64,000 nucleotides of DNA from positions 27,840,001 to 27,904,000 of the forward strand of contig NC_087250.1 in assembly GCF_037042905.1 (NCBI RefSeq). The letters are read 5' to 3'. This document shows positions 1-55,294 of the stretch, piece after piece. How positions within the stretch are numbered: the stretch's first letter is position 1; each line of letters opens with the position of its first letter. Source of the DNA: Lytechinus pictus. Lineage: Eukaryota. The position numbers were made by a program, and so were the translations under genes. The notes below the pieces were generated by a model. It saw nothing but the letters and a program-made list of their open reading frames with translations. It did no database searches and was not told the origin of the DNA.

Positions 1-752
1 CACTCTAGTGTACCCTATAACATGTAGTATAAATACCTAATTTGATCTTAGAATGCTATGTTTAAGAACATATTTCTGATATAACCATTGGCCATATCTT
101 ATTTATTGTAAAAGTGTAACAAATAAATTCTGATTCAATTCAATACAACCTGTAGTATTTCTTCCGTTCAGTTATTACTAAACCAACCATTACTGTATGT
201 CATTACTATACTGTAAGCCACATTAAACTTGTAGTTGTATAAAATTGGATCGTACTGATATCTAACATTGGGTATTTTATTTGATTTGTGCACTGACCCA
301 GAGAGTTGAAAATCCCCAATATGTTTTGATACACATTGCAGGTCCACTCAGTTGCACACTAAACTCGTATTCATTCACACAGTGTGCAGAGATTGTTTAT
401 AGCTGAAAGAGTATACTTGAACTTATCGGTGAGTATGTAGCTTTGGAAATATATTGTTTGTGAAAATAGTAAAGGACATGACTGATAACTTACATTAAAT
501 ACAGTTGATCTACTTTACTATATCTTGGCTATTGTTTTGGACATGACTGTGCTTAAAAACAAATGTTATACCAAGTCTTTCTGATAAAATCCCTTTTAAT
601 GACGTCATCCCTACAACACATGTAGCTCGTCTAATTTCCTATTAGCACTGACAAGGACAAAGGTTGCAAAAAAAGCAAAGATCCCATGATTGGGGGATAT
701 TTTTTTTACTGATAATGAATGAAATCTCATATCACACTGTACTTTTTTTCCT

Positions 753-11324: not shown

Positions 11325-11612
11325 TCAGTTGCTAAGAGTTACTACGTTTTTACTTCGCAAACCATTGGCACATTTGCTGTACTGGAAGCCACATTAGACC
11401 TGTAGTTGTATAGTTGTAGAGAGATGTGAAATGTAATATATAATATCCAACATTGAGCATTTTATTTGATTTGTGCACTAATCCATGATGTTGAAAATCC
11501 CAAATGTTTCACAATACACACTGTATGTCTACTCAGTTGTACATTGTAAACATTCATTCACACAGTGTATATATATTGTAAGCTGATAGAGGGTGTGTAC
11601 TTGAACTTATAG
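11325..11612 (+). promoter_or_regulatory. Candidate non-coding first exon (Inr-like TCAGTT to donor AG|GTAAGT); paralog at 168-428
   Basis: Paralogous segments both keep a consensus donor (G|GTGAGT at 429, G|GTAAGT at 11613). Confidence 0.35.
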
Positions 11613-12689
11613 GTAAGTACGTAGCTTAAGAATTATATTTTATTTGTGGGAATAGGAAAAAACATGAACTTATTCTATGAATATATTTGAACCATAAACT
11701 TGGCTGTTGTTAAGAACATGAGCTTTGAAAATAATGCCCGAATGAATCTTTCTGATAAATTCCTTAACACTATCCCTACAACGCATGAAATATAGCTCGT
11801 CTCATTTTCTTGTTTTTGTCTCAAACATTTTTTTTAATACTTTATTAGTTTGCCTCTGCATTTTACCCCATCAAGTTGTGCGTTAACATTGTGTCTATGT
11901 TTTACACTAGCTGTTATCATTAAACTGTCAGCTGGTTATATGTCAGTTAGGCAAAATTAGGTTTCATGCATCCCATGATTTTAAAAAATAGTACCATTAC
12001 ACAAAAATATAGTCATTTCCTTTTTCAAATTAAGATGATATGTACATCATATACTTGATACGTAGTTCTCCAGACAATTAGTCAGACCTTACGACTTTTA
12101 TTGATTTTGATTTGCTGAGAGGCGTTGTTACTATGTTAACTATTCGTCGAAACACCTGAAAATCCAAGCTTTGTTTGATTTGCTCAGTATTATTGCTCTT
12201 ATACAGCTGATTATAATTCGCTTAATAAACTAGGAAAATTAATGTACATAATACACATCTATATCATGATATAATGTGATGATTTATAATGATCATGATA
12301 TATTATTTCTAAATGTATATTGGCATATGAGTGAGGAGTATACGTTTAGTTTTTATTATAAAATATATTCATTATACTTTGTTGTGAATTACTGGCACTG
12401 TTGAATAGTTAAAAAGGCCAATGTTTTGGGATGTGTAGACTTTAATCAAGACGAAATTATTATCATCTACTTGAGAACTATAATAGTCGTGTAGAAATAA
12501 GAAAATAAATATATTTACTATGGGCTGCGGTATTTACATGTAGTACATTTCGAGAAAGGTTTGTTAATCCACAACCAGTTGTATACACATGACTGATCTC
12601 AACAACTATTATAAACCGTTCTGAATTTTTTAATCTACATAATTATGTAGGGCAAATAGTAATAGTTGGAAATGATATAGAATTATGTT

Positions 12690-13545: not shown

Positions 13546-16500
13546 GAAAAAGTGGGAGAAGAGAGAAGGATAGTGAAGAGGAGGAAGCGAAAGCAATCAA
13601 GAGGGAGGGGGAGAGAGAGGAGGGAAGTAAATTGGCTTTAGGTGTTCCCAGGGATTGTTAACACTATGGCATGTTATATTTCTGATTGGTAAAAAAGATG
13701 TTAGGCATGGAATGACGCCTTTTCTCTTTACTAAAATGATGTGGTAAATATTTGGGAAAACCCTTTACGTTCAGTCATTCTACGTCGACAGATGGCACTC
13801 TCTAAATCCTCCCTTACACGCACATTGAAGCGCTTGATGAAGATGTGGCTTAGGATATTAATTCAATTAAAGTCAGATGCCATTGGCAGTCTTCATTGAA
13901 CTAAAAGGAAAAGTTAACCTTATCCTTAATTTCAAATAATCTAAAAATTTACATACTTTTTTATCTTTATTATAATTCTATAGGAGAAAGCGAAGTGTTA
14001 GACACAATTTGATCATGAAAGCTGAAAAAAAGATTCATTAAGGTTAATGCCAATTACCAATCAAATGAATCTCTTTACGGTTATCCGATAACATTATGAT
14101 GAATATTCTAAAAGATTGAAAAAAAACAAATCGGGAATTTCATTCAAACAAGCTTCAAGGATTAGCAGATGATTAGAGCATAATGATAAAAAAAGAAAAC
14201 AAAATAACCGCCAAAATTATTTCATTTATACTCTCAATAGCCCACTTGCGCCCGCTCTCTCTTATTCCCACAAAGGAAGTGGGGGGGGGGGGGAGTGGCT
14301 GGGGAGTCAAATGTATGACTTGCGTGACAAAATTATTTTCAAACGCTCCCTAAAAGAGTTTTATCTGTGCGCAAAATAAAACCTCAAAAAGTTTTTTTTT
14401 CGCGGGCTTCATTTACACGCCCCTAAACAAGTTGTCGCCAGAAGAAGCCTCGGGGAAACGCTTGAGAAAAAAAAACGACTTAAATATATATACGTTTGAC
14501 CCCGCAATTAACCACTGACCGTCTTTCAAAACTACCCTTTTTCTGAAATCGGCGTTTGGATACCCTAAATAAGTACAAACGCGGACCGCGTCCAAAACTG
14601 GAAAAACACCCCTTTTACCGCGTTTTTTTTTTTTTTTTTTTTTTTTTTTGGGGGGGGATGGTTACGCATGTGTACAGCAATATACATTAATCGACTCCCC
14701 TTGGGTTCATTCTCTTTCCCTTTTAGTATCGTATATCTAAAGGTTTATTTCTACAATTTCACTACCTGACCTGTTTAAAATCTTACTCCCCGCCACAAGC
14801 GCCCAATCTATCGCCAGGGGGGGGGGGCACTGCCCCCTCCCAAATAAAAATAACCAAACCAAAAAGGTAATTAATGGGGAAAAGAAAAAGAAGAAAGGAA
14901 TATAAAATAAATGGGGAAAAGTGGGACATAATATTTCTCAGAATCATGTCAAAGATCTATCGCTGAATTAGAGTTCCATTTAATAAGCTATATATTTTCG
15001 CTAGTTCGTTTTGTTCGCACACGATATATTAAGGACTTCCCTATCCGTTGTGATATGCAAATCCGCTAATGATTTTTTTTTCTCACAACGCCACTGCTCA
15101 CCATCTAAAATTAATTTTCTTTTAACATCTCCCTCTCTTTCGTTTGTTGTGGAAAGATGCACGTACATATTAAATCAATCTAAATAGATATTATATTTAC
15201 TATCTTGTTGAATCTTCATAAATGAGTCCAACGTTTCACTATGAACAAACAAACCATGCACAACAGTCATTATGGTGATAAAACTGATCTTGTAAATATT
15301 AAGTTACTTTACCGTATACTCGCACGTAACAACATTTCCCAGTCACCCAGTCAATGTTCAGAAATAATAAAACACCACATAAATATATCCCTTGCTCAAT
15401 GATGATCGTTTTAATTGTTCCTCGTTGGTGCGCGACTAGTCATGATAGTCTACTGCTGATACCTCTGGAGCAGACTTCTTCATTTTTATTAAATTAATAC
15501 GAACAAGGGAACTAAGCAATGAACATAAGTAAAGCAGAAAATAATATGCCTAAAAAAGAACACAATTATAAAACAATAACAACAACAACAAAGTGCCGCT
15601 CTTGGAATTAACGCGAACTTGCAAATATTATTTTCTAAAGATAAGCAAATGATCATTCCTAGCACAACATGCACAATGTGCCATTTTATTCATCTTTCTA
15701 TCCTCTTCTATTTTCTTTTTATTTCAATTTCTCATTCTCTCTTCGCAATCTACCTTATCCCAATCGCTCTATCTTTGTCTGCAATCCAATCGCGTCTCAG
15801 TGAGATTTAATTGTATATATTGTGTAATTTTGCATATTTGTTTGTATAAAGCTGAACAGGCTACTCTGCATAAAGATTTGAAATAAATAAAATCTCTTTC
15901 TATTATTTCATTTTTCTTTTTACTCTAGATTAACTTTCTCTACTCTCTCTGGAGTACCATCTTACAACATTGAAATCAACCTTTAAAACTACTTATCCAG
16001 TACAGCTTATCATATATTTGGATGATATCGTCGCCAATTGAATTCAAAGTGCCACTATTATCGAAATCGTCATAGAATAGATAACACTATAACGATATTG
16101 CATAGTCAATAATTTACCATGAATGATAATGCAAACATACATAATCATATTACCTTGTCAGTGCATATACCGTGATTGTATATACCCGTTTGAGTAGTTA
16201 TACAAAATCACAGATCGTTCAGCTTCATTCGCCTTCAGAGAACAAGAATTTGCAAGTGAGTTCTTTTTCGGTTTATTGAATCTGCTAATGCATGAGACTG
16301 AGGGTGGGTGGGTGTCAAGTCAGGAGAGATGCCCCTTATACATGTATCTTTCGGCTCTTCTTTTAAGATCTAGGAACAATTGAAACATTACAATGCACAT
16401 GATGCAGGCCTACATAGTTTGGATGGCAACCAGGGAGGGAACGGGTGAGCTCCGAGGAATGCCATTGGTTGCCTCTCTTATTACGGGTCTATAGGCCTAT

Positions 16501-18189
16501 ATTCAATTCAATAATTGAGCCAGAATGTCAACTATTTTACTCAATATATTACTGAAATGCAACTCTTAATCGTCTTTGCAACTCATTTTTTTTTGACAAA
16601 TATGCAAAGTTGTCATGGCAGTATGCTAACATCTGGGCTACAGTAAATCCCTGTATACAGACCTTGCTTGGGCGCGTTTTTATAAACTGGTTTAGACTTA
16701 AATCATGACATCATAATTCAGGTGCGGATCAAGCTTTTGCTCATAGTGGGGCCCAATTTTTTTGTCAACAATATTTTAATGATCAGCTGCACAATATCGA
16801 TAGTTGTTTGTTTCGTTGAAGGGGTAGTCCTAACAGTCACTACTGCTTGTTCATTTTAAAACAACATACATAATGACCCCATTTACATGATATAAGCCCT
16901 ATCTATCTAATAGTGCGGGCGCGAAGCTCGAGCTGCATTTTTTTATTTCATGTAATTTGTCCTAAACATAGTGGGCAATGTTTTCTTATCTTAATTAAAA
17001 TGCGTATGTAACTAAATAATTTTTGCGAGCGCGAAATCTGGGCAATTGGGTATCTTCCTACACATATAATGCAAGCACGAAGAAAATTTCTGATATTCTG
17101 ATCTGAAACTTGATATTTTAAGCACGTTTTGAAGATCAAAAAAACAAGCTGCGTATCTCAGTATACATGCTTGCGCGTGCTCTAGCTTTAGACTTAGAAT
17201 ATTGGCATTTTATCTACATTTTCTATCATAAGTATGAATGCGAGCGCGAAGCGCAAGCTGAAAATATATGATATTCCGATCTGTCAGAGAACAAGAGTTG
17301 AAAGTGAGAAAGTGAGTTGAAAGTGAGTTGAAAGTGAGTTTTTCTTTAATGTGCTAATGTGTATGTAATAAGAATACTGGGGGAGGGGGGGGGGGGTGTC
17401 AACTAGATCTAGGACCTTAGAATATTGAAAAATTACAAAGTATCTTTTTGCTATTGGCAAACGGGGGGGGGGGGGGTGCCCCCTCTTATTTCGTTTCGAC
17501 TCTAGACCGGCAATCAACTCACTACAGATACATGCTTTCATTTTTCTTTTACTCAGTACTCAGTGATGAAGTAAAATCAAAGGTTAAATCATATGGTGTT
17601 TTCTGGCCAAGAATGCATGCACAAATCTAAGTAAGGCAATACCTGGCTTGCTTGTAGTGTACAAGACGCATATAAACTAAAAACTTGATAGCGTGGATCG
17701 AAGAGACCGATTCTCTCGTGTAACCCTTCTGCATATTTTAGGGAGAGATTGAGGATTTCGGGCAAATTCTCCGACATTTTTAAATATTTTATTTTCAGTA
17801 CCTGGGTCGTTAATTTCTTGCTGAAGAATTTATAGGGGGCATCAGGGGGTCGCGTACCCCCCCCCCCCCCCATCCCCCAAACTATACTTTGTAATGCTTG
17901 TAATGCTTCAACAATCTAAGCCATGTACGGCCATGCTTAACTCAGGTTGATCTCGCTTGGTTTTCACTGGTTAGTTTTGATTTTTTTTCTTCCCCATGTT
18001 TTCCAGATTGAGCTGAAGACATGGAGGATTTCGATGAACTCTAGATCAAAGTTGCTAAGAGTCATACACAGTTTGGGAAAAAAGCTTGGATGTTCAAAGT
18101 TACACATCAACTAAATCACAAAACACAAAACATTAATTGGTATGGAACACTTCAAATGCTCCGGGCTCGGCGTAAAATTTAAGAAATTG

Positions 18190-18472
18190 CTAATAATAAT
18201 AATAATAATACAGGATATTTATATTGCGCACATATCCACCTTGTTAGGTGCTCAAGGTGTTCCTATATTACCCGGCTAAGCTAGGCGTTCATAGTGCACA
18301 CAGCTTTTTAAGGAATTACTTCCTACCGGTACCCATTTACCTCACCTGGGTTGAGTGCAGCACATTGTGGATCAGTTTCTTGCTGAAGGAAATTATGCCA
18401 TGGCTGGGATTCGAACCCACGACCCTCTGTTTCAAAGTCCGAAGACTAATCCACTGGGCCACAACGCTCCAC
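18190..18472 (-). mobile_element. tRNA-derived SINE (second family)
   Basis: Minus strand: ggagcgttgtggcccagtgg (A box), ggttcgaatccc (B box), (TTA)n tail at ~18190-18210; partial copy at ~23800-23890. Confidence 0.85.
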
Positions 18473-19702
18473 ATAGAGAGGAAATTTGAAGACTGCTCTG
18501 AAGAAAGCAGGTCAAGTTAATTTTGCTGATGAACTTTTTCCTTCAAGTAAGAAAATAAAGTGGAGAGTCTCATTTTAGTCTAGGGAAAAGCTTCAAAACG
18601 ATTTTGTATCGCCTGCATAGCAGAGTGAGACTATAAGACGCCGCTTTTCCGGAGGCGGCTGGGGAGTCGCTAACATTTAAAATTTGAAATGTCATCATAA
18701 TCGACCTACAGTAGTTCATGAAAATGGGACATAAGGGAAATCAAATATCCCTAATCATCCCCTGCGAGTTTCAGGCTACATGAGAGGGGTCCAAGGTCTT
18801 TTAGGGTCAATGAACTTTGACCATGTTTTTTTTTTTTTTTTGGGGGGGGGGTTAATTGTTTAATTGCCATCATAATTTTGAAAGTGTCTAGTTCCTGACA
18901 TGTGGACAAATTGGTAATAATGACAATAATGATGATAATAATAATAATAATGATAATAACAATGGCGATAAATAGATATTCTAATGATGATTATTAAAAA
19001 CGGGATAGTCTACATACGCAATTAATATAATTTAATTTCAAGCACATTTTGCAAGCATAAATATGACAGCAATATTTCTTACAACATACAACGTGAACGC
19101 AAAACGTGAGCTTAAATCTGTTTACCACTAACCTAATAAAATACAGCTTTTAAATTGTATAGTAAGAATGAACATAATATTTATTTATTCATTTCAAACT
19201 TCGATATATTGACAAGAAAGAGTTCCGGTATGCCAGGTTTTCTCTTTCCTTGTTTATTTCTTTTTTTCTTCTTTAATTTATTTTCTTTTCTTCGTTATCT
19301 TCTTCTTTATTTCAATATTTCTTTCTATTCATGTTGTTTTCTTCTTATTATTATTCTCCTCCCTCTCTTTTTTCTCCTCCTCCTCCTTATTCTTCTTCTC
19401 CTCCTCCTTTTTTCCTTTTTCTTCTTCTTCTTCCTCTTCTTATTTTTGCTGTCTTCTTTTTTTCATCCACTCTCTCTCTCCATTCCCTCTTTCACTGCTC
19501 AGCCCAAAATAGGTTCTCGTCCAAAGTCAAGTTTATTTTATACGTATTTGAATATACAGTTGATATTGATGTAATATATAGTGTTGGATGATTAGATATT
19601 AATAAAACTTTTATTGAAGACGAAAATATGATGATTACCTTATTATAGGCATATATGAAACTGCATGGCATAATTTTGACGTATTGTTGTACTTCAGACA
19701 CC

Positions 19703-20222
19703 ATGGACCATTCTGGAGTGAGCAGGAAAACGAGCGATGCTGACCCTTCAACGAACACCGCCCTCTCTCGACATGGATTCTACGACATTTATCTCTGGGC
19801 ATCGTCTAAAAACACAGATCATTTTCGTAAAATGAAAGATTGTATTCATTCAAATGGATGGAAAATGACATCTTGTTTTGATCAGAAACTTGGTGAACTA
19901 GAAACACAAAGCATCGAAAATGATCTTTTAAAATGCTCCCACATGGTATGTTTGATCACGAAAGATGACTGTAAAACAAACAACATTAAACAGCTTATGA
20001 CGATAGAGATGGCGATTCAGTCGCTTCCTAGTACGACAGGAAAAGGACTAGCAGGCCGGGTTATTCCTATTCGATGTGACGTTCCAGAATCTTCTCTTCC
20101 TTCTCAACTGAAAGCCTTGACAGGAGCGAGTATTGATGATCGTGATCTTGAAGAAAGACTACGGAAAAGTATTAATACCAACATCCGGAGGGAGAGAGAA
20201 GAAAAAGTTAAGAATGTCTCAG
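19703..20222 (+). CDS. Coding exon 1 of a TIR - coiled-coil - beta-propeller protein: TIR-like domain
   Basis: Acceptor ttcag| at 19697, strong Kozak acaccATGg, donor CAG|GTAATT (phase 1). Peptide follows the TIR/TIR_2 pattern: YDIYL..., G...SIE..L..., VCLIT, RVIPI..DV...LP..L. Confidence 0.8.
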
Positions 20223-22381
20223 GTAATTTGATAGATTTATTTTCCCTATAAAAGGTATATTATGTGGCAGATTGTGGTAACATGAGGGGTGTTACTCTAA
20301 ATAGTCTACATGTATGCACTGCACTTAACCATCCGTAGCAAAATATACAGCGATGTAAGATAATTCGACCCCGCCCTCCTCAAATCATCACCACCATGAT
20401 GATAATAAATAAATAGGATTTAGGATATAGGAATTATAAAGTGCATGCCAGAAAAAAAAGAAACCGTTAACTCAGTAGTATATTATCATGATCATCAATT
20501 TACTTCATAAAATGTACATGAATGGAAAACATATACTTCATTTTGTTAATTTTGTTTTCATTTGAGACCCATCTCAATACTCATAATACTGAGTTAAAAC
20601 AATGAAAAGTGGTGGTACCAAATTTTCATTAGCACGTGCAAATTGTGATTTTGGGTGAGTTGTTACTGCTATCTATTCGGAAGACAAATTTTATAACTTG
20701 AATATTCATTTTCTCCTTTCTTTCATAATTATGAGACCGTATGCGTAACATATAAATGACGCATAGTCAAGAAATAGTTGCGTTAAAACATGCTTGATTT
20801 CTTCCTATTCAATGGATTGTTGAAAAAACCAAGCACTTTCCTTTCCCCAAAGAAAGCAGCAGACACCGATTATCATTATTATTATTTTATTCGGCATTTC
20901 AACAAACACAGTTTACAATCAACCTGCAAGAGAATATACAATTACAAAGTGAAAAGGGATGTTTACAGAACAAGTCCAGGTTGCCTGGAAAAGGAAAAAG
21001 TTAAATAAATTACTGTATCCCGCAGACTTTCCTCCCCGACATTGACTTGTGTGTTAACACCCCAAGAATAAAAACATATATATAGATTATCATATTAATA
21101 CAAACAATAATTCATACAGAAAAAGCATATTGAAATCGATATGTATAAGAACGATAAAATATAGTGTGATTAGAAACGTAATCGCAGGACAACTTAAAGA
21201 AGGTGTGGTAAATTGGTATTTAGATAAACATTTAAATTGGCCAGGTAAATATAAACTTTAAATGAAGTACATTATATGGAGAAAAGATGTATAAGCAGTA
21301 AAAAAAGGGAAACCTAATAAGATTTGGAATTAATAACAAATGAAAATATGAATGTGAGAATCCTATATTCTTGCCAGAAATCATAAAGTATACATGGGCG
21401 GGTGTAAAAAACAGGCAAAGTATTTTATTCTTTTTGCATTTTTTGGTATTCTATTTTTTTGACACAAAATTTTTGCTCTTCTCCTCGGAGCGAGGAGACT
21501 TTTCCGTCACTACCCGTGTCCCCAAATGCTATTTCTTCAATTTTCAGCAAGTAATTTTTGGCAAAGTATCTGCTCAAAGTGGGAGGCCGTGGTATATGCA
21601 AAAATATGTACGATGTTAAATTTTATTCTGTATCGATGTAAATCCATTTCCTGTCTTGTTTTGCGCCATTGATTTGAAATTTGGAATATCACAGAAGTTT
21701 TTTGATCAAACAAAAGGAAGCGCCGAATATGAGCAAAATTATACAATGCTTTTTCTTCCAGAATAATTCCATGCTTCATCGCTTTCAAATTTTGAACACG
21801 TTTTTTCTTAATCGAGTTTTATATAATCTAAGAAATATCAAAAATTCGAACAGATTAATGATTAATTTCTATAATTCAGAGCTTCAACACCATTCGCCAT
21901 TGTGTTTTGCGAGTTAATTTGATGTAGATAAAGTTTTTACAATCAAAATTGAAGTGACCAAGGTAGGTATAATAATAACATCTCTCTTTTATAGTTTATG
22001 AAATGTTTTAAGCTTCCGCCCTTCGCGCGATGACAGGAATTATTCACATTCTTCAATCTTTTCCCATTTTGTTGTGCTCATAATTTCTCTTTCGAAAAGA
22101 TTTTTTTTTACCACATTAGGTCAATTGAATTCGAGTTAATAAATGTTCTATAGACGCAAGAGACGCCTACTTATGATTTGAATTTGAACGTTGAAATAAG
22201 CTTCAAATAAAAAGGGGAAGTGTATCTTTTCAATGATGTTCATCGCAAGAAGAAAAAATACAATGATGATGGCAAAATTACATTGAATTCCGGCTTCCCT
22301 TTTTTCTAGGACGCACTGTATATTGCACATAATTATCCTCATTGTAAGGTGCTCAAGGAGCTTCTGTAGTCGGCTAATTAA

Positions 22382-23795
22382 AGAACAAGTGCACCCCAAC
22401 AAAAAGTTGATTTGAATAAAAAGAGAAAAATCAAACAAGCATAATATCGAAAATTTAATCAGAATCGGACGTAAAATAAGAAAGTTATGACATTTGAAAA
22501 TTTGGCTTAATTAAAAAAAAACAGTTATACAGTGCGTCCCACAAAAAACGAAACCGAGGTTTAGCGATGATTTATCATAACTTAATCATAAAAACAATAG
22601 ACAAATGACCTACCAACGTAAAGCTTAGAATCTCCTCTTTCATCTGATACTACTTAGATTATTCCTCATTCATGCATGAGTGAGCAAAAACAATTTGAAG
22701 AAAGGATGTCAAAAACTCATTTGGCGGGGGGAATCTGAATTTTAAAAAAGAAAGTCACATGACTAAAAAGTTCAATATTTGCTCTTTGATTTGATACCTT
22801 AATCACAGAAAATGGTCAAGAAATAAAAAAGTTATGATCCCTCGAAACAATGCTTGTATTTCCATAATTTCATTAAATAAACGTGTTTTCACCGGTTTCC
22901 CACAGAAGCTATCGCACGGTAACAAAAGACTTATTGCATGGCTGGTCGTCAACAAAACGGAGTGTCGAGTGAGTTTAGACGCTAGCCTGAAAAACCTCTT
23001 CATTTCATGAAATTATTGAAAATCAAGCCTTGTTTCAAATAACCAGAACTTTCTTATTTCTTGACCATTTTCTTTAATTGAGGTATCAAATAAAACAGCA
23101 GATATTGAACTTTTTAGGAATGTGATTTTCTTTTTTAAATTCAGATAGGCCCCGCCAAATGACTTTTTTGTATCCCCTCTTCAAATTGTTTTTGCTCACT
23201 CATGCGTGACAGAAAAATAATCTAAGTAATTTTAGATGAAAGAGGAGATTCTAAGCTTTACAATGGTAGGTCATTTGTCTATTGTATTTGTGATTAAGTT
23301 ATGACAAATCATCGATAAATCTCGGTTTCGTTTTTTCTGGGACGCACTGTATGCACATTCTGGTCGGTATGTCAATGAGGAGTCTGATGTCATCCACTCA
23401 CTGTTTCTTTTGTATTTTATCATATGAAACATGAAATATTTTAATTTTCTCCTCATTGTCCAGTAAAACAACAATTAATTCCTCCATGAACAATTGGAAT
23501 TAGTATTGTTTAATACTATATTGTTCAGTCAAATTGGTCCTTATCGTCAAATCTGTAAAAATGAAATATTTTATAATTCAAACAATAGAAAACAAAAGAA
23601 ATAGTGAGGGATTATCGACTGACTCATTCGCTTATCACTGCGTGGTGCATATCACTGTTTTGTGAAAATTAAGCAAAACTTTAAACTGTCATAACTTTCT
23701 TATTTTACATATGATTTTGATGAAATTTTCAGCATTAGGCTTGTCTGATTTTCTCTATTTATTCAAATTCACATTTTCGGGGGTGGACTTCACCT
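22382..23795. mobile_element. Kolobok-like non-autonomous transposon (TTAA TSD) in the TIR-gene intron
   Basis: ttaa-agaacaagtgcacccc ... ggggtggacttcacct-ttaa. Confidence 0.7.
22530..23349. mobile_element. Tc1/mariner-like foldback MITE (TA TSD) nested in the previous element
   Basis: ta-cagtgcgtccca...aaacgaaaccgag / ctcggtttcgttt...tgggacgcactg-ta; inverted arms of >300 bp. Confidence 0.85.
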
Positions 23796-23998
23796 TTAAG
23801 CTAGACTACCGATTTCGGTGCTCGCACCTTTTTGAAGAATCACTCCCTGCTGATACCCAATTACCTCACCTGGGTTGAGTGCAGCATAGTATGGGTAAAA
23901 GGGTCATCATTATTATTATTAACACACATAATACCAAACATCCTTAAGAGATTAAAGCAGTCACAGTTGAATATTTTAAACTATTATTTACGATATAG

Positions 23999-25578
23999 GT
24001 TGCTCAGTTTCTCAACCTGAAAGAGATGAAACAGGAGAGCGACGCAATGTCAAAATGTCTTCTGGTCGCCCGAGCACTATCAAAGACGACGAACAGAAAC
24101 AGCGTGAGCTTGATGAGATGAGGAAGAAGCTGAAGGAGAAACGGGCCATGTTAGAGGAAACAAAACAAAGACACAAGACAGTTGGATCGAAACTAAATGG
24201 CGCTTCAAATTCATCAAATAAACATTTCCAAACGATCAAAGATGATATACAAGATACATTGGAAAATACAAGGCTAAAGTTAAAGGTTAGAGAACGGGAA
24301 ACTGTTGAATCAATTAATAAGATACACAAGGAGGCAGATGAGAAAATAATAGCCATAAATGATATGCGTAAAGAAAATATAGAAGCTTATGAAGTCGAGA
24401 TAGAACTCGAACGAAATATAACCAAAGATAAAGAAGCCAAACTGTCATCACGCTTATCAGACACAGATGAAATCAGCAAAATAGTTTTCGAGAAGATAAT
24501 GGATCTTAATAGTAAGATTCAGAATGCAATAAAGGATATTGAATCAACCATCACACGTATCAAACAACATGATGAAACATTGGTGAATGAAGCTCCTCAA
24601 GTACTTAAATCTATTGATGAAAATGTAAGTTTGAATTTTCATCAAGATGTTAGCGACTGTCTTGATCGAATACAGAATGAAGTTGAGAGAGTGAAGTTTG
24701 TAGAGGGGGAAGTAGGTGGAGAATACTATGGTAGAATTGATGGGTATATCGGTAATTGGGAACTTGTCAAGTCAATCCACATTCCATCGGTTGTTAATTA
24801 CCCGTGGGTGCGTGGTTTAGTCAGTGATGATGAGATATGTGTGCGAGACGTAGGTAACAGTGACATGTATATTACAAACATCAACACTCAACACACAGAG
24901 AAAGTCATTGATGAAGATGTGTGGATTACATCATGTGCGCCCATAGACAGTAACGTAATAGTATGTGGTAAGGAGAGAGATGATTGCACGGGTGACAGGT
25001 TGGATGGATGCATCACTCTCTATGACAGACAATGGAAGGTGATTAGAGACATCAGCATACCAGGGAATGGAGACGATAGTCGTGTGTATGTTGATGTTGA
25101 CGGGGATGGGATGATCATCGCTGCTCAGTTAGATCAGTCTAATATCTACGTCATCAATCCTGCTGATGATAAGATAGTAAACACTATTACGATGCAGGGT
25201 AAGGTGGAGTGGGGTGAGATACAAGCCTTGTCATCAGGTGATATCGTTGTGAGTACAGATGATAATAAATACACTGTCATATCACGATCAGGAGAAGAGA
25301 AGGCTGTCATACACTGTGATGAGTGGAACTGGTGGACAGAGTGTCGCGTTGACAAACTGACAGACACACTCTACATCGCGTACTGGGATAGAGCGCGTAA
25401 TACCATCGCAGTTGATCAGGTGTCACGTGATGGTATCATCCAGGCAAGGAAGATCGTGGAATACGTGAAATCAGATCGCTCTGACTGGGTCAGCCCTTGT
25501 CTTGTTACTCCTTCTGGTAACCTTGTAGGATGTGATGGGGACAAACTTCATCTTTACAAGAAGACATTCATTTTGTAA
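23999..25578 (+). CDS. Coding exon 2: coiled coil plus NHL/TolB-like beta-propeller (TRIM-NHL-like C-terminus)
   Basis: Acceptor tatag| at 23998 is in phase with exon 1 (G|GT = Gly) and runs into the 507-aa ORF. About 200 aa of E/K-rich helical sequence is followed by beta-rich blades (VDVDGDGMII, IYVINP, SSGDIVV, VTPSGNLV). Confidence 0.88.
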
Positions 25579-26377
25579 ATCATCAAGTATTTCAATGAAT
25601 GATTAAAAATTAATATAAACGATATACTTATTTTCAAATTTCACTTTCATTTTAATTCACGTCCCCCAACATGAATACATTCATAATGCGCGTGTTGACG
25701 GTGTGAATGTTGTATCAATATACAGGTGCAACGTATTGGAGTGTTGTAATAAACTTGCCATCGATTGCAGGTCAATTTTTGTTTTCAAAATTAATTGAAA
25801 GTCGTGCATTTCATTGAAAATTTGCAATTGATTGTTGGTCAGCTTATGTTATAAACAAATATGAAATGATTTGCTTTGGTTAAAATTGATCTATCAATTG
25901 CTAAATTTGCATATGAAATTTGCAATTGATCGCAAATATTTTCTTGTGTCTTACACAACGCAGTGATTAATATTTAGCCGTCTAGATTTATATTTTTATT
26001 GAAATGTATAATTGTACTCGTAATTACATTAAAAAAAAATAAATAAAGAAAAAATGGTTAACCAATTGCCTACTTTAATCCAGGTAGAAGGTCTATGGGA
26101 ATGGCTGAACCCAGCACATGACGAGTTCATTACTAACTTGTGTTAGCTGAACCCGATCATTTACCAAACGCTATTTCGTACAATGTTATTCCTTTTTAAT
26201 GCTAACAGTGATCATTTTACCCCGGGATTAAATTTGCTTTTAACTTCATTGGGTCTTTAAATCCAATCTATCCATCAGGTTGATTTCGTTTTATATTCTG
26301 TTGCAAAAAAGGTGAAGTAATATAAGATTGTATTAAAAGGAGAGGGGAAAAGTGCTGTGAAGTACAAGTAAGTGTTT

Positions 26378-26735
26378 GAACCGTGGTATAGTGTTTCTGA
26401 CTATCACCTTGTAAACGGAGGGTCGTGTGATCGAATCCCAACGAGGCCTGGCGTCCTTTGGCAAGGTGTTAATCCACACTTTGCCACTCTCGACCCAGGT
26501 GCTATATGGGTACCCGGTAGGATGTGAAAGTCATTGCAGCTTGTCCAGTACTGTGTGCGCCTCACCGGCAACTGACTGGAATACTCCCCAGGGTGTGGAT
26601 GATGTGCTCACATTGTGTGCGGGAATGACTGATTGAATGCGATGACCGGGGTAGTAGTATATCTGTAAATTGCTCAGACACACCTTTTCGATGAATTAAG
26701 CGTTATATAAAAGCGGATTGTTATCATTATTATAA
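26378..26735 (+). mobile_element. tRNA-derived SINE, with a duplicated 3' part at ~26825-27110 split by a small MITE
   Basis: Near-identical to 4878-5231. Confidence 0.85.
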
Positions 26736-29700
26736 GTATTAAATGAAATATTCAGTTATGAATCATATTTCAGCTGGCGCTGAGCATTCAGATTATCAGG
26801 GAATCGAGGATGCATGAATTTGTGAGCGGGAATGACTGATTAAATCCGGTGACCTGGCGACAGTTTCATGAAACTTGTCAGCATTGACAAGTTGTCTTTT
26901 TCGACAATTACCATAGCAACATTTAGAACATGAGCCTCTGAGCCAATCAAAACCAAGGATCTCACTGAAATTGTCAGTGCTTACAAATTAATCCGTGCTG
27001 AAAACTTTCATGAAACATCCACTGGGGTAATGATATATCTGCAAAGCGCTTTGACACGTCGTTCAGATGTATTAAGAGCTATATAAAAGCGGACTATTAT
27101 TATCATCATTATAGTTTTTTAGTGTACATAATCCCTCTCATGAATGTTAACAGAAAATAAGAGAAAAACTCATTTTGTAATAGAATCCTTGCTCAGTCAA
27201 CATACATATCACAATGGATATGATGAAGATAGACAGAAATGAATATGTTTCCCCCATAATTCTCTTTACACCAATTGAATATTCTCATTCTGTAGAAACA
27301 GGTGACGTCCATCTCAAAATGACTCAGCACACTCCATATTTAATATATTCATAAAAGTATTACATCATATCGCTTATTTCAATCAGTTCATTAACTTTCG
27401 TCTTTACACCTTCTACTTTATCCTCATATATCGGCTTTATATTTTCAACAAAGATTAATTTAGATTTCTTGTACCACATGTTTAATCTATTATATCATAT
27501 TACACTTACTACCTGGCTATGGAATCTCAAGTAGCAAGCCTTTGGATTGTTGAAAAAAATTTTAGTTGTTTTTTTGTTAACGACTGTAATGATGTGTTGA
27601 CGCCCGCTACGTTCAGTAACGTTTATCGACATCGTTAATTGATGTCAAATTAATTTCATCATAAAGATCCCATGGACATATAAACATCTGGTAGTCGAAC
27701 GTGCCATGCTGTAAATAAATAAAAATAGGGATATGCATGTATTTGTTGTGTAACAGACAGAGTTAGATAATATGACAAATAACTGTACATATCATAGCTT
27801 ATGTTCGTGGTTTTATATTAAGGAGGCTGTATTATATTAAATTCATTTATATTCTTTATTTTATTTTCATTTAATACTGCGTTAAGTTTGTTAACAGTTT
27901 GTACTGTATATGGCATATGTTGCTCCAATGCGTTGTATATAAATCGGTATTGTCTAAGGTGTGTTGTGTTAATGTAGAAATGTGTCATTTATACAAAAGA
28001 TTCCTACCAAATTTATACAATAATCAACTTTGTACACTTGAGTTTAGGTATATAGGGTTTATGTTTTATCTAAAGTATCAATGCAATAGCTTGTTATTGT
28101 CTATATCATTGCTTATTTAAAAAATCGCTCCCAAAGAGAGAGCGGGACAGAGTTCTATAAATGAATTTCTCCTGAAAATTAGCCAGATCTTACGACTTTT
28201 ATTGATTTTGATTGGCTGAGAAGCGTTGTTACTATGTTAACTATCCGTCGAAACACCTGAAAATCCCAGCTTTGATTGATTTGCTCAGTATTATTGCTCT
28301 TATACACCTGATTATAATTCGCTTTATAAAACTAGGAAAACTAATGCACATAATACGCATCTATATCATGATATAATGTGATGATATGTTATTTTCAAGT
28401 TTATATTGAAAGATGAGTAGGAAGTTCGTCAGTAGTTTTTAATAATATATATTCATTATACTTTGTTGTGAATTACTGGCACTGTTGAATAGTTTAAAAG
28501 GTTAATGTTTTGGGATGTGTAGACTTTAATCAAGACGAAATTATTTTTACCTACTTCCGAGATGAAAATAGTAATGTAGAAATAGAAAGAAAATATATTT
28601 ACTATGGGTTACGGTATTTAGTGCAGTATATAGTATACAAATTACTGATCAAAACACCAATTACCAACCGATCTGAATATATATATATATCTTCACTATG
28701 GGTTATGATAATTTAGTACATTTCAAGAAAGGTTTACCAACCCACAACCAGTTATATGCACATTAATGATAAAAACCCAACTATCAAAAGATCATAATAA
28801 ATGGTTAATATTTTAAATTGATCGAAATCTGTAAATAGTGTATGTATTTTGAAGTCATCATCATGGTGATGAGGCGGGTGATTTTAATGCACAAACAATC
28901 ATGTAGTGTTACAATCAAATAATTTTGTCAGCATAAACGAAATTAAATGTTAAAAAAAAAAAACCCGACTCTATATGCAGTTCATATTTGTGATTTACAA
29001 ATGATTTTATTGGACGTGTATGACTGATGGTACCAGACGAAGGGGGGGGGGGGATGAGAAGATAAAGGGAAAAGAGAGGGGGTGGCAAAGTGGAGGGGAG
29101 TGAGAGATTGACGAGGAAAGTAAAGATAGAGAAAAAATATATATATATGAAAATAAAAGGATAAAGAGACGGAAAGGAAAGGGATAGAAAAGATGAGAGA
29201 GAGAGAGGGGGGGGGGGGAGAAAGATAGAAGAAGGGGAGAGAAAAGAATGGAGAGACAGTGAGAATAAAGACTGAGAAAGAGCGAGAGAGAGAGAAGTGG
29301 AGGAGTGAGAAGGAGAAATGAAGAGACAAGGTGAATACAGATGGAATAAGAGAGAGAGAAAGAGAGAAGAAGAAGATGAACTACCGAGAGACAAGGAATG
29401 ATAGAGAGAGATGGGGGAAGGGGACGGGGTGAATTTGTAATTAAGTTTGTATTTGTATTTTCTTTTCCTAGGAAACTAAGAAACATTACATTACAAAGTG
29501 AAATACATCACAAACCATGTCAATCATAAAAATTCATAATAAAACTGAAGAAAGGATGAATTTGAACTCCGTATAGAAGATAGATCTGGCTTCGTCGAAA
29601 TTAAGTAAAAGGAAACATAACTGAGGGGCTTGCCAAGAACGAATGAATTTAAGAGATAGAAAAAAAGGTAGGAAGAGAATAAAAGAGAATGAGAGAGAGA

Positions 29701-42347: not shown

Positions 42348-43026
42348 CTAAGAGAGAAAGAGAGAGTGATCTCATTGTCAAAAAATTTACAAGCAATTAA
42401 GTGTATCATTATCATGTTCGAGATAGATGACACAATATTATTTTAACTCTTTGCCCACCACGAACACCCTCCTGCGCCGCATTAATTTCAAGTGCAACCT
42501 TTAGAGGGGTTTAGCATGGACTCTGCTAATACAGCTCACTTAAGCTTTTGTTTGGTTTAGTGTAAAGAAAAACTTTGCGATGCACTCATCACTAATTTGT
42601 GTATGAACAATAGACTAATTGCACTTGGTTTGTATTGTAAATTTATTTATTTATTTATTTATTTATTCATTCATGCATGTTCACAATATACAATGTAAAA
42701 GAATACACAGATAATGTATAAATATATATATATATGAAAACACAAGTAAATAATGAACATACAAAGGTGTTACAACATAAGCTAAAAGCTTGATTGGTTG
42801 AAGCACCTTTAAACTGGTTTTGCATCCAAGAAAACAAAATAAAAATGTAAGAATAAGGAAGAGAGGAAATAGAATGTGGCTTGAATCTAACTTGGCTGTC
42901 TGCTCTCTGTGACTAGTTGAACAATGCAGGCAGAGTTAATAATCTTTTTGTTTAATTCTTTCTTCCCACCTTTCCTCAGAAGGATGTGTACCAAAGATTT
43001 ACTCGAAGGAGTATTGTTTGCAGAAG

Positions 43027-43605
43027 ATGAATAGCATGATTCAAAGAACAACAAGACTTGTTTCATCTTGTCGACTTCAACTACAGGTGTTTGCAGCATG
43101 TCACAGTCACTCGCATACAGCAAGGCATAGTGTGTTTCACTTTCCTGACAGTCTAAAAACACATGGAGGAGAGGCTAATGTTTCGTATACTGGCAGAGTT
43201 TTTAAACGGAATCTGTCAGCATTATCACAACATAGATCAGAGTCAGACATTTGTAAACTCCAAAGAGCTCTTTGTAGGAATTTTAAACAAAGCTCGTCAT
43301 TGCTATGTCAGACGAACCAAGTTAATTGCATATGTGTCGGTCCAAGGAGATTCAAGGAAAGTAGACAGATGATGAATAGACCGGTGCACCATCATTTCTC
43401 AACAATAGCTTCATATTCTGTACTGAATGTTTGCCGCAAGAGAAGATATAACCAGTCTGCAGTGCAGAGTTGCAGAGTTCAAAGGTATGGATCCAGTGCT
43501 GTTGGAAATGAGACCGGTGATCCCCTCTCACCTAAGAGCCCACAGTTCAGATGCTACATGGATCATCTGAGAAATGAGCACCAGGCCATCTCAGATAGAC
43601 TTCAG
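43027..43605 (+). CDS. MTRF1L: Mitochondrial peptide chain release factor 1-like, first coding exon (long R/S-rich, acid-poor N-terminus)
   Basis: Acceptor cctcag| at 42979, open frame, donor CAG|GTTAGT (phase 0); start at ATG 43027 or 43036 is uncertain. Confidence 0.7.
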
Positions 43606-44167
43606 GTTAGTTTAAATACCATTCTCTTTCCTGCAGTAGTATTGAGAGGAATCTAACATTTTATTTACCTGTTCAGGGATCTGTTTCATTAAACTTGTTT
43701 TAAACAAATCTGCAAAGCTAATGAAATCCTTCAATGTGATTGGCTGGTAGTAAATTTGTTATTGAAATGTTCATTATAATAAGTCTTAATGAAATGGGAC
43801 AGAGACCCGTTTCCACAAACAGTTGGAAACATTAATGCAACATGCGTACAAACCTTGATTGTGATTGGTTGCTGAGCCATGTTTAAATTCGAATTCAAAT
43901 TTATTCAACACTCATCATAAAAACACATTACAAAATAATACAAGTATTACACAAAGGGAGATAAATATAAGAAATAGAATGACAAACAGAAGGTAGCACA
44001 TAATGAGAGTGTCAGAGGTAGCAGAAAGGAGGAGATTCCTTTTATAATTGCTACCCCAACAAAATCCTAAAGTTGAAAGTTGTAGATGTACATGAAAAAA
44101 TACTACACATGAGATATAAGATATAGCAGTCATATTTTCCCTTTTATTGTTTTGTATGTTTTAAAAG

Positions 44168-44303
44168 GGAGGGGAGCCGTTGTCAGACTCTAAACAGAAG
44201 GAGCTCAGGGGATCCATGATGGAGCTTGGTGAGATCCTTGAGAAATGGAACGAACTGATATCAATGAAAGAAGAGATCGATGAAATTCAGCATCTTATCC
44301 AAG
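44168..44303 (+). CDS. MTRF1L: MTRF1L exon (domain-1 helices GGEPLSDSKQKELRG...EIDEIQHLIQ)
   Basis: aaag| acceptor, AAG|GTAGGT donor, 136 nt open, phase 0 to 1. Confidence 0.75.
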
Positions 44304-45334
44304 GTAGGTAGTGGTCTTGATTTAAATGTGTTTTTAGAAAAATATGAAAAATAAGGATAAATTTGTGATATCAGCTGGCATTCTGATAGCTAAAACTAAC
44401 AGTGATTTTAGTCAATGCTTCTGTGGAATGCAAGTGTTCATGTCCTCCTGCAGTACACGTATCCATGACAGCTTATTTCCAATCGTCAAATTGCAAACTC
44501 GTATACTATCATTTGGTCTACCATCAGTTAGTCCACTCACCAAATGGTCTACTTTCATTTTAATAGTCTAATGCCATTATGTCTAATAACCAGTTGGTCC
44601 AATAGCCATATACCATTTGGTCTAATTGGACTAAGTGTTAAATTGTGCAAAGTGAATGAAAGTAATATGGATACTTGACCAACTGGTTATGAGACAAAAT
44701 GGCCATAGATGAAATGGTGATTAGGTGAAGTGATGATTGGACTATTTTTGTTTAATGGACCAAATGGTTGTTAGACTAAATGTTGATGGATGGAATGGCA
44801 TTAGACTAAATTAAAGACCATGTGGTGAGTGGACGAGTTGGCAAATACCATAATAGTAACTTTTATGCAATGGGGCACTGCTGTTCTTTGCGACCATTTT
44901 CTCCTGACTGATTGGAAGTTTCAATAGGGCCGTCTGCACCAGCCCGAGTTTTCAAATTAGTGCGCGATTTCTGATCCGGTAAATTATCCCGATCTGAAAA
45001 ATCTCGAAATTATTTGTAATGGAGACGCAATTTCGCTGGATTAATCTCGATATTGCTTTGTTTTGAAGTGAAATTATTGACATGAATGTATTTGGGATGG
45101 AAATAGTCCATTAAGATAATTTTTTAGCAATTCGTATGGTCAAATTTACATTTTGCTTCGATATATACAATATGAATTTATTCTGACCTGATTTGGCAGA
45201 TGCTAATTATCATTTAATATTGTCATACAATTTGAATACTGTTTCAAGGGAGAGGGCCTTCAGTACACAAGGTATTGATAGGCTGCACATTCAGACCCTT
45301 ATTTACTGGAGTGAAGTGTTTGCACCACAGATGT

Positions 45335-45490
45335 GGGGCCAGTTTCATAAAGAGTTACAACTGCTGTAACTTTGCCATTATGGCAACTACCATGGTTACC
45401 TTGACTTTGATTGGCTGCTGAGCCATGTTATCATGGTAGTTGCCATTATGGTAAAGTTACTGCAGTTGTAACTCTTTATGAAACAGGCCC
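45335..45490. mobile_element. Short palindromic MITE (gggcc...tttcataaag family)
   Basis: Near-perfect inverted arms; relatives at ~43677, ~45915-46072, ~62377. Confidence 0.75.
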
Positions 45491-46143
45491 TAGCATTTAA
45501 TCTTGTCTGATCCATTAAAAGTGAAAAAAGTGCCCTAGATGCTGTAACGCAAATCTTTCAATTGAACTTGGACCGATTTTCATGCCTTATTGCATATATG
45601 TTGTGATCATTATAACAGCAATCAAGCCAGCAAATATATTGTATACTCTGCGCTATGCCATTTGCTATGATGAAAATTGCTCTGCTCTAAATTCCACATA
45701 CTAATCGATGGACCATCTTCAACCCTGGGTTTAACACTATACCATATCCTAACATACATCCCATTGCAACCATAACCCTATATATGAGATAAAATTAAGC
45801 CCAGAGCAATTGTTGCAGGAGCGAATGCTGTGTCACTGCATAATCAAGCCATAAATATGCTCATGATAAATATGATCATGATCATTTGACCAGCGATCAA
45901 GCTAGCAAATCTGAGCTCCATTGCATCAAAGTTACCATCATGGTAACATTACTTTCCAATGGTAAATTGCATGTAATCCTTGATTCTGATTGATTGTTGG
46001 TCGTTGTTACCATGGTAGTTACCATTGGATGACAAAGAAACGATAATAGTAACTTTTATGCAACGGGGCCCCAGTGTCTGATCACACCATAAGGTTTGTG
46101 TGACAGTCAATTCCATCTCATTTCTTTTGTTTTTCCTCTATAG

Positions 46144-46327
46144 TTGGTTGACCTTCTAATGTCCTCCGAAGAGACTGATGATAATGATGTCATAATGGAG
46201 TTTTCAGCAGGAGTGGGAGGTCAAGAAGCTATGCTGTTTGCCTCTGATATGTTTGACATGTATCAACGATATGCAGATTACAGACGTTGGTCCTTTACAA
46301 TCCTTGAGTACTTTACCTCAGATATAG
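46144..46327 (+). CDS. MTRF1L: MTRF1L exon (PCRF domain start: [15 protein letters not shown]...MY)
   Basis: Strong polypyrimidine acceptor, class-1 RF motif, donor AG|GTTAGT, 184 nt. Confidence 0.95.
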
Positions 46328-47187
46328 GTTAGTAAAAGTCGTATTGTTTGGAACTGGAAAAATGTTGATGAAACGCTCCCCTGTGATAAAGGAGTCTTTG
46401 TTATGTGTGAGTAGCATGATCATCATGGTATGTTATTTTGTTGACTCTGAGACGATATTTTCCTCAGGTATCATATTGCAAAGCATGTTCAGATCTTTTA
46501 AAACCAATTGACTGATTGCAAACAAAATTGCTTAAAATGGACTGACTAATCAAGACCAATGTTACATTTGCATTTTGTTCAAAATACTAACCAGGAACCA
46601 ATCAGAAGTGTTCTTTTATATTTACAGGTACTTCTTTAGCTTTGATCCCCTTTCTCTTTACATATCTCTTTTGATCCTGGCAATATGCAAATACATGCAT
46701 GTTCAAATGTAGTTTTGGAAGTTTTAGTTTTACCTAAGATCACAGGGGCCACGGAATGGTTTTCATAGTGGGGGGCTGACCATGCAAAAAATCACAATCG
46801 TATGGTCATTTTTATGTTTTTGTACATGATTTTGGAAAAAATAACCCCCCCCCCGGCCCCCCCCCCACTTCCGCGGCCCCTGGATCAATGGTATACAGTA
46901 TACAGGATATGTTTAAACAATGTACCGTAAAGTGTAATTAGTGAGATGTATACTTGTTTTTGTACCAGTAATTGTTTAATTGACATTCATTTCAGTTTGT
47001 TAACTGTGTGGAGAATTTAGATTAATACCATTTATCTACATGTAACTATGTATCTATTTATCTACATGTATCTATGCCTGAACTTTTCTAATCAGTTTTA
47101 TCTGGATAAAGCAGTTTTTATGTACCGAAGAGACCACACTGCCTAAAATAAGATGAATAAATCAGTTACTTCAATTTTTTTTCCTAG

Positions 47188-47351
47188 GTGGATTAAGGCA
47201 TGCTACCGTTAGTATCACCGGTGATCAAGCTTATCGTCTTCTAAGACAGGAGGCTGGCGTCCATCGTGTTCAGAGGGTACCAAAGACAGAGAGACAAGGG
47301 CGTATACATACAAGCACCATGTCAATAGCTGTACTACCACAACCTAAAGAG
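47188..47351 (+). CDS. MTRF1L: MTRF1L exon with the RF1 PxT stop-recognition motif ([23 protein letters not shown])
   Basis: Canonical RF1 motif, cctag| acceptor, GAG|GTATAA donor, 164 nt. Confidence 0.97.
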
Positions 47352-53300: not shown

Positions 53301-53770
53301 GTCAATAGCGGTACTACCACAACCCAAGGAGGTATAAACCAAGGGCGTATACATACTAGTACCATGTCTGTAGCGGTACTACCACATCCCAAATAGGTAT
53401 AAACCAAGGGCGTATACATACTAGTACCAAGTCTATAGCGGCACTACCACATCCCAAATAGATATAAACCAAGGGCGTATACATACTAGTACCATGTCAA
53501 TAGCGGTACTACCACAACCTAAAGAGGTATAAACCAAGGGCGTATACATACTAGTACCATGTCAATAGCGGTACTACCACAACCCAAGGAGGTATAAACC
53601 AAGGGCGTATACATACTAGTACCAAGTCTATAGCGGTACTACCACAACCTAAAGAGGTATAAACCAAAGGTGTATACATACAAGTATTTTATCTATAACA
53701 TTACTACCAAAATCTAAAGAGATGCAACCTACCATGTCTATAATGGTACTACCACAGCCTAAAGAGGTAC
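47295..53770 (+). repeat. 65-bp tandem satellite (~99 units) derived from the exon 3' end plus splice donor
   Basis: Unit CAAGGGCGTATACATACTAGTACCATGTCAATAGCGGTACTACCACAACCCAAAGAG-GTATAAAC; unit starts at 47295 and 53665 are exactly 98 x 65 apart. Confidence 0.98.
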
Positions 53771-53859
53771 AACTTTCCTCAAACAAAAAATAGCTTCAAA
53801 ATGTTGTAAAGTTTTGAAAACTTTCTAGAACACTCTGGAATCATTTTGTGTTTGCTTAA

Positions 53860-54553
53860 CCCTATCCAGGCCGATTCACGCGATATTTTCGCCACGCGAA
53901 ATTCTTTGACCGCGCCGCTCGCTGACTTTTTACTTTCAAGTCTTGCGCAACTTTTGAGACCAATTTTGCATCTCCTGGGTACGCGGTTCTGAAATTACGC
54001 AACATAATGTAAGTGCATGTCAGACCAAAAATTGCTCAAAAACGTGATTTTGTGTACAAAGTCAATGCATATTGTGTTTTCAACCTCAAATCATAAATAT
54101 ATGATTATTTTTAGTTTTGCTGGTCAAAATTTATTTTTAATGCTGTTTATGATCTCAGAAGAGTCCCCAACAAACTTCAATGAATAAACAATGAAAAACA
54201 AAAGATCAAAAAAACAAAGAAATACATAAGAAATTGCAAAAAACAATATAATACATAAGAAATTGATCTGTTATTGCAATTTTTTTCATGTACACTTGCT
54301 GAGAACACCACAAAGAGTCTCCAAACCAAAAATTATAACATTTGGAGCTTTATGAAGGGAGCTAGAGGAAAAAGTATGATTTCGCATACTAATTAATGCA
54401 TAAATTAGCATAATCTCTTAATAGCAATTTGCATGAAATAAATTACTATACAATTTTGTAGATCATGTCCCAGACAACCTGCGTGCCAATGTTCGGCGCG
54501 ATCGCGCGGCCAACGGCCGTATGAACTCCCAAAATACCCCGGCCTAGATAGGG
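53860..54553. mobile_element. piggyBac-like MITE
   Basis: ttaa-ccctatccaggccg / cggcctagataggg-ttaa. Confidence 0.85.
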
Positions 54554-54806
54554 TTAATAACCACCTCACTATTGTTTGTCTTATTGGTCAAACATTTTAG
54601 TTATCTTGCATTTGAAGCTGTAGCATTCTCTAATAAAACAAATCTTCATGAAATTCTAGGAAGTATTGTGGCATCACTGTCATAGCATTAGTTTGCCTCT
54701 CCCCTGTTAGCTACAGTATATATCTGTGCAGCTTAGAATAGTTATTGGCTAATTCTATGAAGTAAAAAATACCAGCCATGACTTGAAAATAAAAATAAAA
54801 CTCTAA

Positions 54807-55234: not shown

Positions 55235-55294
55235 GTATTATATATCTACTACAGACAGGTATTATACATATGGGGGTTTTCTGCCCTAAGACTA

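Follow-up and report, generated by a model that had tools for sequence, protein, structure and literature searches.

Pyrin (TRIM20) carries a signalling domain in place of the RING, and in both pyrin and TRIM5alpha a variable ligand domain forms the C-terminus of a TRIM body. Avid recognition of the TRIM5 type is achieved by higher-order assembly (PMC4936894). In the TRIM-NHL proteins (Mei-P26, Brat, TRIM2/3, NHL-2 and LIN-41/TRIM71), a coiled coil is followed by a six-bladed NHL propeller; NHL domains bind their ligands on the top face, which is made up of the DA and BC loops and is positively charged in the RNA-binding TRIM-NHL proteins (PMC4015489). TIR domains occur in scaffold adaptors such as TRAM, MAL, MyD88 and TRIF, and are joined directly to a cytosolic sensor module in oyster TIR-STING and in the amphioxus TIR-NB-ARC-WD40 fusion (PMC2575513). 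The gene described here lies on the forward strand of Lytechinus pictus contig NC_087250.1, in a stretch of 64,000 nt (positions 27,840,001 to 27,904,000; the window, whose own numbering is used below unless a C6 position is given). It encodes a 699-aa protein, identical to RefSeq LOC135154585, in which a domain that models as TIR precedes a putative TRIM-type coiled coil and a propeller that models as NHL.

The protein shares the order of coiled coil and six-bladed NHL propeller with the TRIM-NHL proteins, and most of its paralogs keep a B-box. It differs from them in having a TIR head, a hypervariable and acidic top face, no RING or B-box, and at least 84 genomic matches compared with 3–5 genes; on these sequence features (no RING/B-box; acidic top) it would not be a strict member of that group. 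Like pyrin and TRIM5alpha, it has a TRIM body and a variable, putative ligand domain at the C-terminus, but with NHL rather than B30.2/SPRY and TIR rather than PYD or RING, and because the B-box is missing, the lattice mechanism of TRIM5 cannot apply unchanged. By analogy, it probably works most like pyrin or TRIM5. The scaffold adaptors TRAM, MAL, MyD88 and TRIF provide the nearest TIR folds and profile matches, likewise with no glutamate in the catalytic register, and the Death-then-TIR order of MyD88 was that of the ancestor of the window gene. Unlike the adaptors, the window protein has its TIR at the N-terminus, fused to a putative sensor, and this TIR belongs to a separate echinoderm clade; with its Death exon broken and its TIR N-terminal, it does not have the sequence of a MyD88-like adaptor. 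As in the oyster and amphioxus fusions, TIR is joined directly to a module for cytosolic sensing, here a putative one, but there is no STING or NTPase domain, and oligomerisation would use the TRIM coiled coil.

The two-exon reading frame is intact and spliced. It runs from ATG 19703 to the donor at 20222 (CAG/GTAATT) and continues, at phase 1, through an exon of 1580 nt (23999–25578), with its sole stop at the end; the intron ends in TAG, and an alternative in-frame acceptor at 24008 would give a product of 696 aa. In a contig of 1127 nt (X15 record 9), the sole record with both sides of the 3776-nt intron aligned, 19697–20220 directly abuts 23997–24594 with no other letters and no gaps. Contigs from all four runs (two studies) end at the donor (20224) and continue for 76–594 nt off the intron, and the same join is present in the contig of a paralog. 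The runs behind these contigs are RNA by guess or unlabelled; the junction is nevertheless read as splicing because none of the eight genomic TIR-exon matches is an intronless copy. An earlier note, made from the sequence alone, had proposed that a phase-1 intron joins a TIR-like exon in frame to a 1.58-kb exon, giving 699 aa, and had named the junction 20222–23999 as the place to look for spliced sequence; both the frame and the junction are borne out. So is its statement that no transmembrane segment is evident, since the highest 19-residue Kyte–Doolittle mean is 0.72. The rank of the TIR exon as exon 1 does not stand, given a phase-1 acceptor (AG at 19696–19697) and a broken Death exon upstream.

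The Death remnant is identical to the intact exon of a paralog at 247 of 292 aligned bases. It carries two stop codons (TAG 18042 and TAA 18180), deletions of 15 nt and ~14 nt, a 1-nt insertion and an inserted repeat of ~279 nt, which by its length and copy number would be SINE-like (short interspersed nuclear element). Both deletions and the 1-nt insertion are common to a second copy of the gene, at C6:27.03 Mb, and so the Death domain was lost once, before these two copies separated. Transcripts appear to skip the remnant: in each of the five contigs that span the start of the TIR exon, the match begins at 19697 (G), whereas the donor of the remnant would put A before that exon. These contigs bear 5–213 extra bases, which were not located within 15000–19696 (contigs of four runs). 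The bin at the start of the remnant (17896–18076) has a depth of 0–0.07 in all four runs, a low cover that carries no weight alone.

With fragments counted, exon 2 is matched at least 84 times in the genome, and many of these matches form tandem series on C6. The 122 proteins retrieved bear a variety of heads: 104 have a B-box only, two a TIR on the window exon type, and one each Death, Death plus TIR, and B-box plus TIR, with two TIR proteins without a propeller and 11 with no recognised head. The 30 best loci comprise 24 with a B-box, three with a window-type start and three with neither. No B-box or RING match was found in the window protein (P0001). On this homology, its body is derived from a large B-box/coiled-coil/NHL family, and the occurrence of the same body behind B-box, Death and Death-TIR heads fits the exon shuffling suggested earlier, for which paralogs sharing exon 2 with other N-terminal exons had been the proposed check. 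The protein P0002, with the order B-box-propeller-TIR, is probably a fused gene model and was left out as an architecture.

One paralog (P0003, C6:27.20 Mb, 795 aa) is an intact Death-TIR-coiled coil-propeller. Two copies with a Death head (C6:26.14 and 26.30 Mb) are without exactly the segment corresponding to window 19624–20212 (589 bp), and keep both flanks, the last bases of the TIR exon and its donor; the Death exon of the 26.14 Mb copy is partial. That these two copies represent a state before TIR insertion was ruled out, since they keep the end and donor of the TIR exon, homologous to the TIR-exon end of L004. The Death lesions in two copies and the 589-bp TIR deletion in two others therefore indicate that one Death-TIR ancestor gave rise to TIR-only and Death-only forms. 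Judging by these copies, the ancestor was Death-TIR-coiled coil-NHL, with Death lost in the window and C6:27.03 Mb copies and TIR lost in two. The description of a TIR in place of RING/B-box is thus right as to the missing domains and not as to a simple replacement, the window copy having lost Death from this ancestor.

Several other features of the family were observed. Both Death-headed copies with the TIR deletion carry, upstream of it, a decayed piece of propeller (C6:26146360–26146665 and C6:26310669–26310977), which at 26.14 Mb is placed between the Death exon and the deletion. More intact Death exons occur directly upstream of exon-2 paralogs at C6:27947498 and 27143188, one of these paralogs being B-box-bearing. 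The TIR exon of the C6:27.03 Mb copy (C6:27034527–27035033) is nearly identical to that of the intact paralog (27207484–27207990), with a dS of 0.03. As this copy has its Death lesions in common with the window copy, such similarity suggests that gene conversion took place recently. The L. variegatus protein P0071 (LOC121416471), whose head is not annotated, starts like the B-box-less spliced exon type, which would therefore predate the split of the two Lytechinus species.

Neither exon matches Pfam at E<=1, for TIR and NHL alike. TIR_2 is matched, below the cutoff, by five of the eight aligned genomic copies of the TIR exon and is absent from the window copy itself, while the relatives P0143, P0144 and P0148 pass the cutoff. 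The structure model of the TIR exon (predicted local distance difference test, pLDDT, 81) matched TRAM in VIA with Z 13.8 (root-mean-square deviation, rmsd, 2.7; 139 aligned), effectively tied with MyD88 (13.4), TRIF (13.3) and oyster TIR-STING (13.2); SARM1 followed at Z 11.7 and the best non-TIR row at Z 10.0. In Foldseek, every row listed was a TIR protein, and a 32-row profile matched TRAM, TIR-STING and MAL among PDB sequences. A profile of eight rows had matched only a designed Rossmann protein, so that the larger one was needed. Identity of the window TIR to the solved adaptors is 11–18%. The exon models as a TIR domain nearest to the scaffold adaptors TRAM, MyD88 and TRIF, in line with the fold that had been anticipated, and the predicted five-strand/five-helix fold together with homology to TIR families places it in the TIR superfamily.

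In a midpoint-rooted tree built from 35 TIR rows, three of its branches long, the window TIR and those of two paralogs grouped together (100/99). Their sister was the L. pictus Death-Death-TIR protein LOC129263083 at C6:23.84 Mb (96/89), and S. purpuratus relatives came next to them. P0131 is a TIR-Death relative whose Death domain is 50% identical to the Death type of the intact paralog and the remnant. On these comparisons, the TIR head is derived from an echinoid Death/TIR family, and the nesting in the tree suggests that the fusion of TIR to propeller arose within the Lytechinus line. A TIR of the same family is found in P0127 behind a hydrophobic, membrane-like segment.

The region between the TIR and the propeller is homologous to the segment behind the B-box in paralogs. 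Its heptad a/d positions are hydrophobic in 30 of 61 cases compared with 35 of 152 elsewhere (best-fit registers). Neighbours in the Atlas were clusters of B-box and RING-B-box proteins from echinoderms and one B-box/NHL cluster from molluscs; a feature search of the Atlas yielded nothing usable. By analogy, the coiled coil would form an antiparallel dimer of TRIM type, with the geometry of TRIM25 (PMC5076470). Homodimer prediction for this region scored 0.00, and since the controls were unfolded too, this carries no weight either way. The propeller was modelled with a pLDDT of 93.7, and its top six VIA matches were all TRIM-NHL domains (Z 24.1–21.9), Mei-P26 being the best (Z 24.1, rmsd 3.4, 258 aligned); TRIM2 NHL had the best TM-score in Foldseek (0.67). 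Identity to the Mei-P26, Brat, NHL-2 and LIN-41 structures is only 11–16%. Together with the heptad pattern and the B-box paralogs, these matches agree with the earlier assignment of a coiled coil and propeller of TRIM-NHL ancestry, and the C-terminus models as an NHL propeller. The top-side loops carry 12 K/R, 24 D/E (net −12) and 12 aromatics, by residue count rather than an electrostatic map, and the isoelectric point (pI) of the domain is 4.5; over 29 paralogs, the charge of this side varies between −16 and +9. Its acidity in the window protein makes RNA, which had been named as a possible ligand, unlikely.

Variability across the family is concentrated on this same face. In an alignment of 29 propellers (window plus 28 paralogs, without the broken L037), hypervariable sites number 38 of 279, of which 35 fall on the DA/BC side, one on AB, none on CD and two at the C-terminus; judged from this alignment, hypervariability is confined to the top face. 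The ratio of non-synonymous to synonymous differences per site (pN/pS) is 1.27 on the DA/BC side and 0.65 on the other face (1.46–2.14 and 0.64–0.87 in ten split-half tests), rough figures that fall short of a formal selection test, being drawn from non-independent pairs of a recombining family with pS also raised in the variable patches. The gene is also a mosaic: informative sites before ~25064 favour the Death-TIR paralog by 174 to 31, and those after it favour the neighbouring B-box gene by 86 to 3, the breakpoint being the best of many and its p-value uncorrected. The neighbouring B-box gene matches at 95.5% over 24326–28194. The reciprocal losses of heads and the recombinant propeller resemble the turnover of receptor families. 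For the TIR, comparison with the intact paralog gives a corresponding ratio of substitution rates (dN/dS) of 0.20 in the core and 0.32 in the whole exon; comparison with the C6:27.03 Mb copy gives 0.18 and 0.29. These values average the time before and after the loss of Death.

We give about even chances to the reading that the protein is a cytosolic sensor, in which the top face of the propeller binds a variable, probably non-RNA ligand and the clustered TIR nucleates a scaffold that signals in trans. Beyond the anatomy of the locus (splicing, folds, family origins, losses and variability), we infer the following mechanism. The variable top face would bind a foreign ligand, protein-like or otherwise non-RNA, and the coiled coil would dimerise in the TRIM manner with the heads held apart, as in TRIM25 (PMC5076470). 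A multivalent ligand could then cluster the dimers, and the TIR domains would nucleate an assembly of the scaffold type (PMC8635717), acting as a TRAM- or MAL-like scaffold rather than an enzyme. Because the protein has no Death domain of its own, signalling in trans would be required, through a Death-bearing TIR adaptor (e.g., the Death-Death-TIR protein LOC129263083), MyD88 or a Death-headed paralog. The earlier proposal of an immune sensor whose propeller binds ligand and clusters TIR is made plausible by the hypervariable top face; its RNA ligand is not retained. A wider proposal is more tentative and rather less probable: that these genes form an undescribed urchin family of cytosolic receptors, NLR-like and NTPase-free, with recombining, hypervariable NHL propellers on TRIM coiled coils and swappable B-box, Death, Death-TIR and TIR heads. 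Under this proposal, the TIR-only and Death-only forms that arose in Lytechinus by reciprocal loss could complement each other through their coiled coils, and the window gene would be the working TIR-only form.

Some observations weigh against the sensor reading, beginning with the limits given above for dN/dS and pN/pS. The depth over the TIR exon is low in the two true RNA runs (1.33 and 0.59, all in the orientation of plus-strand RNA), and no joint is listed in these two runs, ~6% of each of which was read. The Death-less copy at C6:27.03 Mb has a frameshifted exon 2 in this assembly, so Death-less copies can decay. In Foldseek, seven-bladed G-beta chains rank above TRIM2 NHL by E-value.

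The alternative that fares best, though unlikely, is a decoy or dampener, which would block signalling by the intact Death-TIR paralog through binding to the ligands, coiled coils or TIR filaments that this paralog binds. Death is gone from the window copy while TIR is still constrained, and the head and coiled coil are nearest to the intact paralog, making mixed dimers plausible. Dominant-negative TIR-only or truncated MyD88 forms exist, yet TRAM and MAL are without Death domains and signal positively (for the scaffold model, PMC8635717). The 3′ part of the propeller has been replaced from the B-box neighbour, so that its specificity probably differs from that of the intact paralog.

Still less probable is a decaying duplicate that is transcribed on its way to becoming a pseudogene. 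The dead Death exon, the frameshifted sister copy and the low depth of raw reads would fit such decay. No TIR-headed propeller was found outside L. pictus, a weak negative with the genomes of relatives outside the search. Against decay, the 699-codon frame has stayed open while the ~290-nt Death exon gained five disabling lesions, and despite a divergence of ~8% from the C6:27.03 Mb sister since their shared Death lesions (227/246 identical); the TIR dN/dS of 0.18–0.32 and the spliced contigs from two studies argue in the same direction.

We consider it improbable, somewhat more so than decay, that the TIR is an enzyme, with ligand-driven clustering leading to NAD+ cleavage and cell death and the Death domain dispensable. 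Oyster TIR-STING is among the nearest structures, SARM1 reaches the score given above, and 18 of 32 family rows conserve E102, a helix-C glutamate that sits a single helical turn away from the residue aligned with the catalytic site. The catalytic position itself is occupied by L98 in two profile alignments, or by T100 if read ungapped, neither being glutamate; Box 1 reads YDIYLWAS compared with a consensus of YDVFISY (PMC7075850), and the top three structural matches are scaffold adaptors. With no glutamate in the catalytic register, NADase activity, which had been named earlier for TIR domains in general, is doubtful, E102 remaining a point in its favour. Least probable is that the protein regulates RNA in the manner of Brat or LIN-41 and that its TIR head is incidental. 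The nearest propeller structures, all of them NHL domains that bind RNA (Mei-P26, Brat, NHL-2 and LIN-41), and the 12 top-side aromatics would point this way. TRIM-NHL proteins that bind RNA, however, have a positive top (PMC4015489), whereas the top here is acidic (24 D/E to 12 K/R; domain pI 4.5); its charge varies among paralogs as noted above, and identity to those structures is low.

The coordinates of the gene and its associated features are collected in the table. The candidate 5′ exon has an in-frame stop relative to the TIR ATG, and its last base fits contigs matching from 19697, not 19696. Its sequence has 19 matches in the genome, 16 of them on C6 26–28 Mb, and is present upstream of several family members; on these features, it may be a 5′ exon of the gene. 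The upstream element that the family shares (250–520) recurs in diverged form (76%) at 11443–11667, with a GTAAGT donor; the corresponding copy of the candidate exon (~11520–11610) ends AG/GT and is a poorer fit to the contig boundary than 342–428. Elsewhere in the window, exons of a peptide-chain release factor gene occupy 42943–58172 (Pfam RF-1 at 57810–58169, E 8.8e-16), and a compositionally skewed stretch (~48000–54000) lies inside its span.

Table. Features of the TIR-propeller gene and its upstream region, in window coordinates.
Feature	Position	Strand	Basis
Candidate non-coding 5′ exon, unverified	342..428	+	CAG acceptor, ends CG/GTGAGT, no ATG
Broken Death-domain exon	18008..18546	+	tblastn with intact paralog P0003
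High-copy SINE-like repeat (putative) inside Death exon	18194..18472	.	Gap relative to intact paralog, very high read depth
TIR exon, phase 1-1; ATG 19703; core ~residues 26–165	19698..20222	+	Model, VIA matches, TIR_2 in copies
Intron, GT-AG, phase 1, repeat-rich	20223..23998 (3776 nt)	+	Spliced out of contig X15 record 9
Exon 2, B-box-less leader and putative TRIM-type coiled coil, ~residues 174–420	23999..24738	+	Heptads, paralog homology
Exon 2, predicted six-bladed NHL-type beta-propeller; stop 25576–25578; breakpoint ~25064	24739..25578	+	Model, VIA

No paper on TIR-NHL proteins or on echinoderm B-box/NHL expansions was found in a search of openly available papers. The term "NHL" is absent from the main texts of PMC2575513 and PMC2858798, and the supplementary table of TIR combinations in PMC2575513 may bear on novelty. 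The TIR described here is too divergent for Pfam, so fusions of this kind can escape notice. With its breakpoints, the locus records how a diversifying and putatively ligand-binding body acquired a signalling head and how that head was later lost in part, in two directions. Should the family sense pathogens, it would add a class of cytosolic receptors to the TLRs and NLRs of a genetically tractable urchin, and its paralogs with different heads would make the wiring from sensor to signal directly testable.

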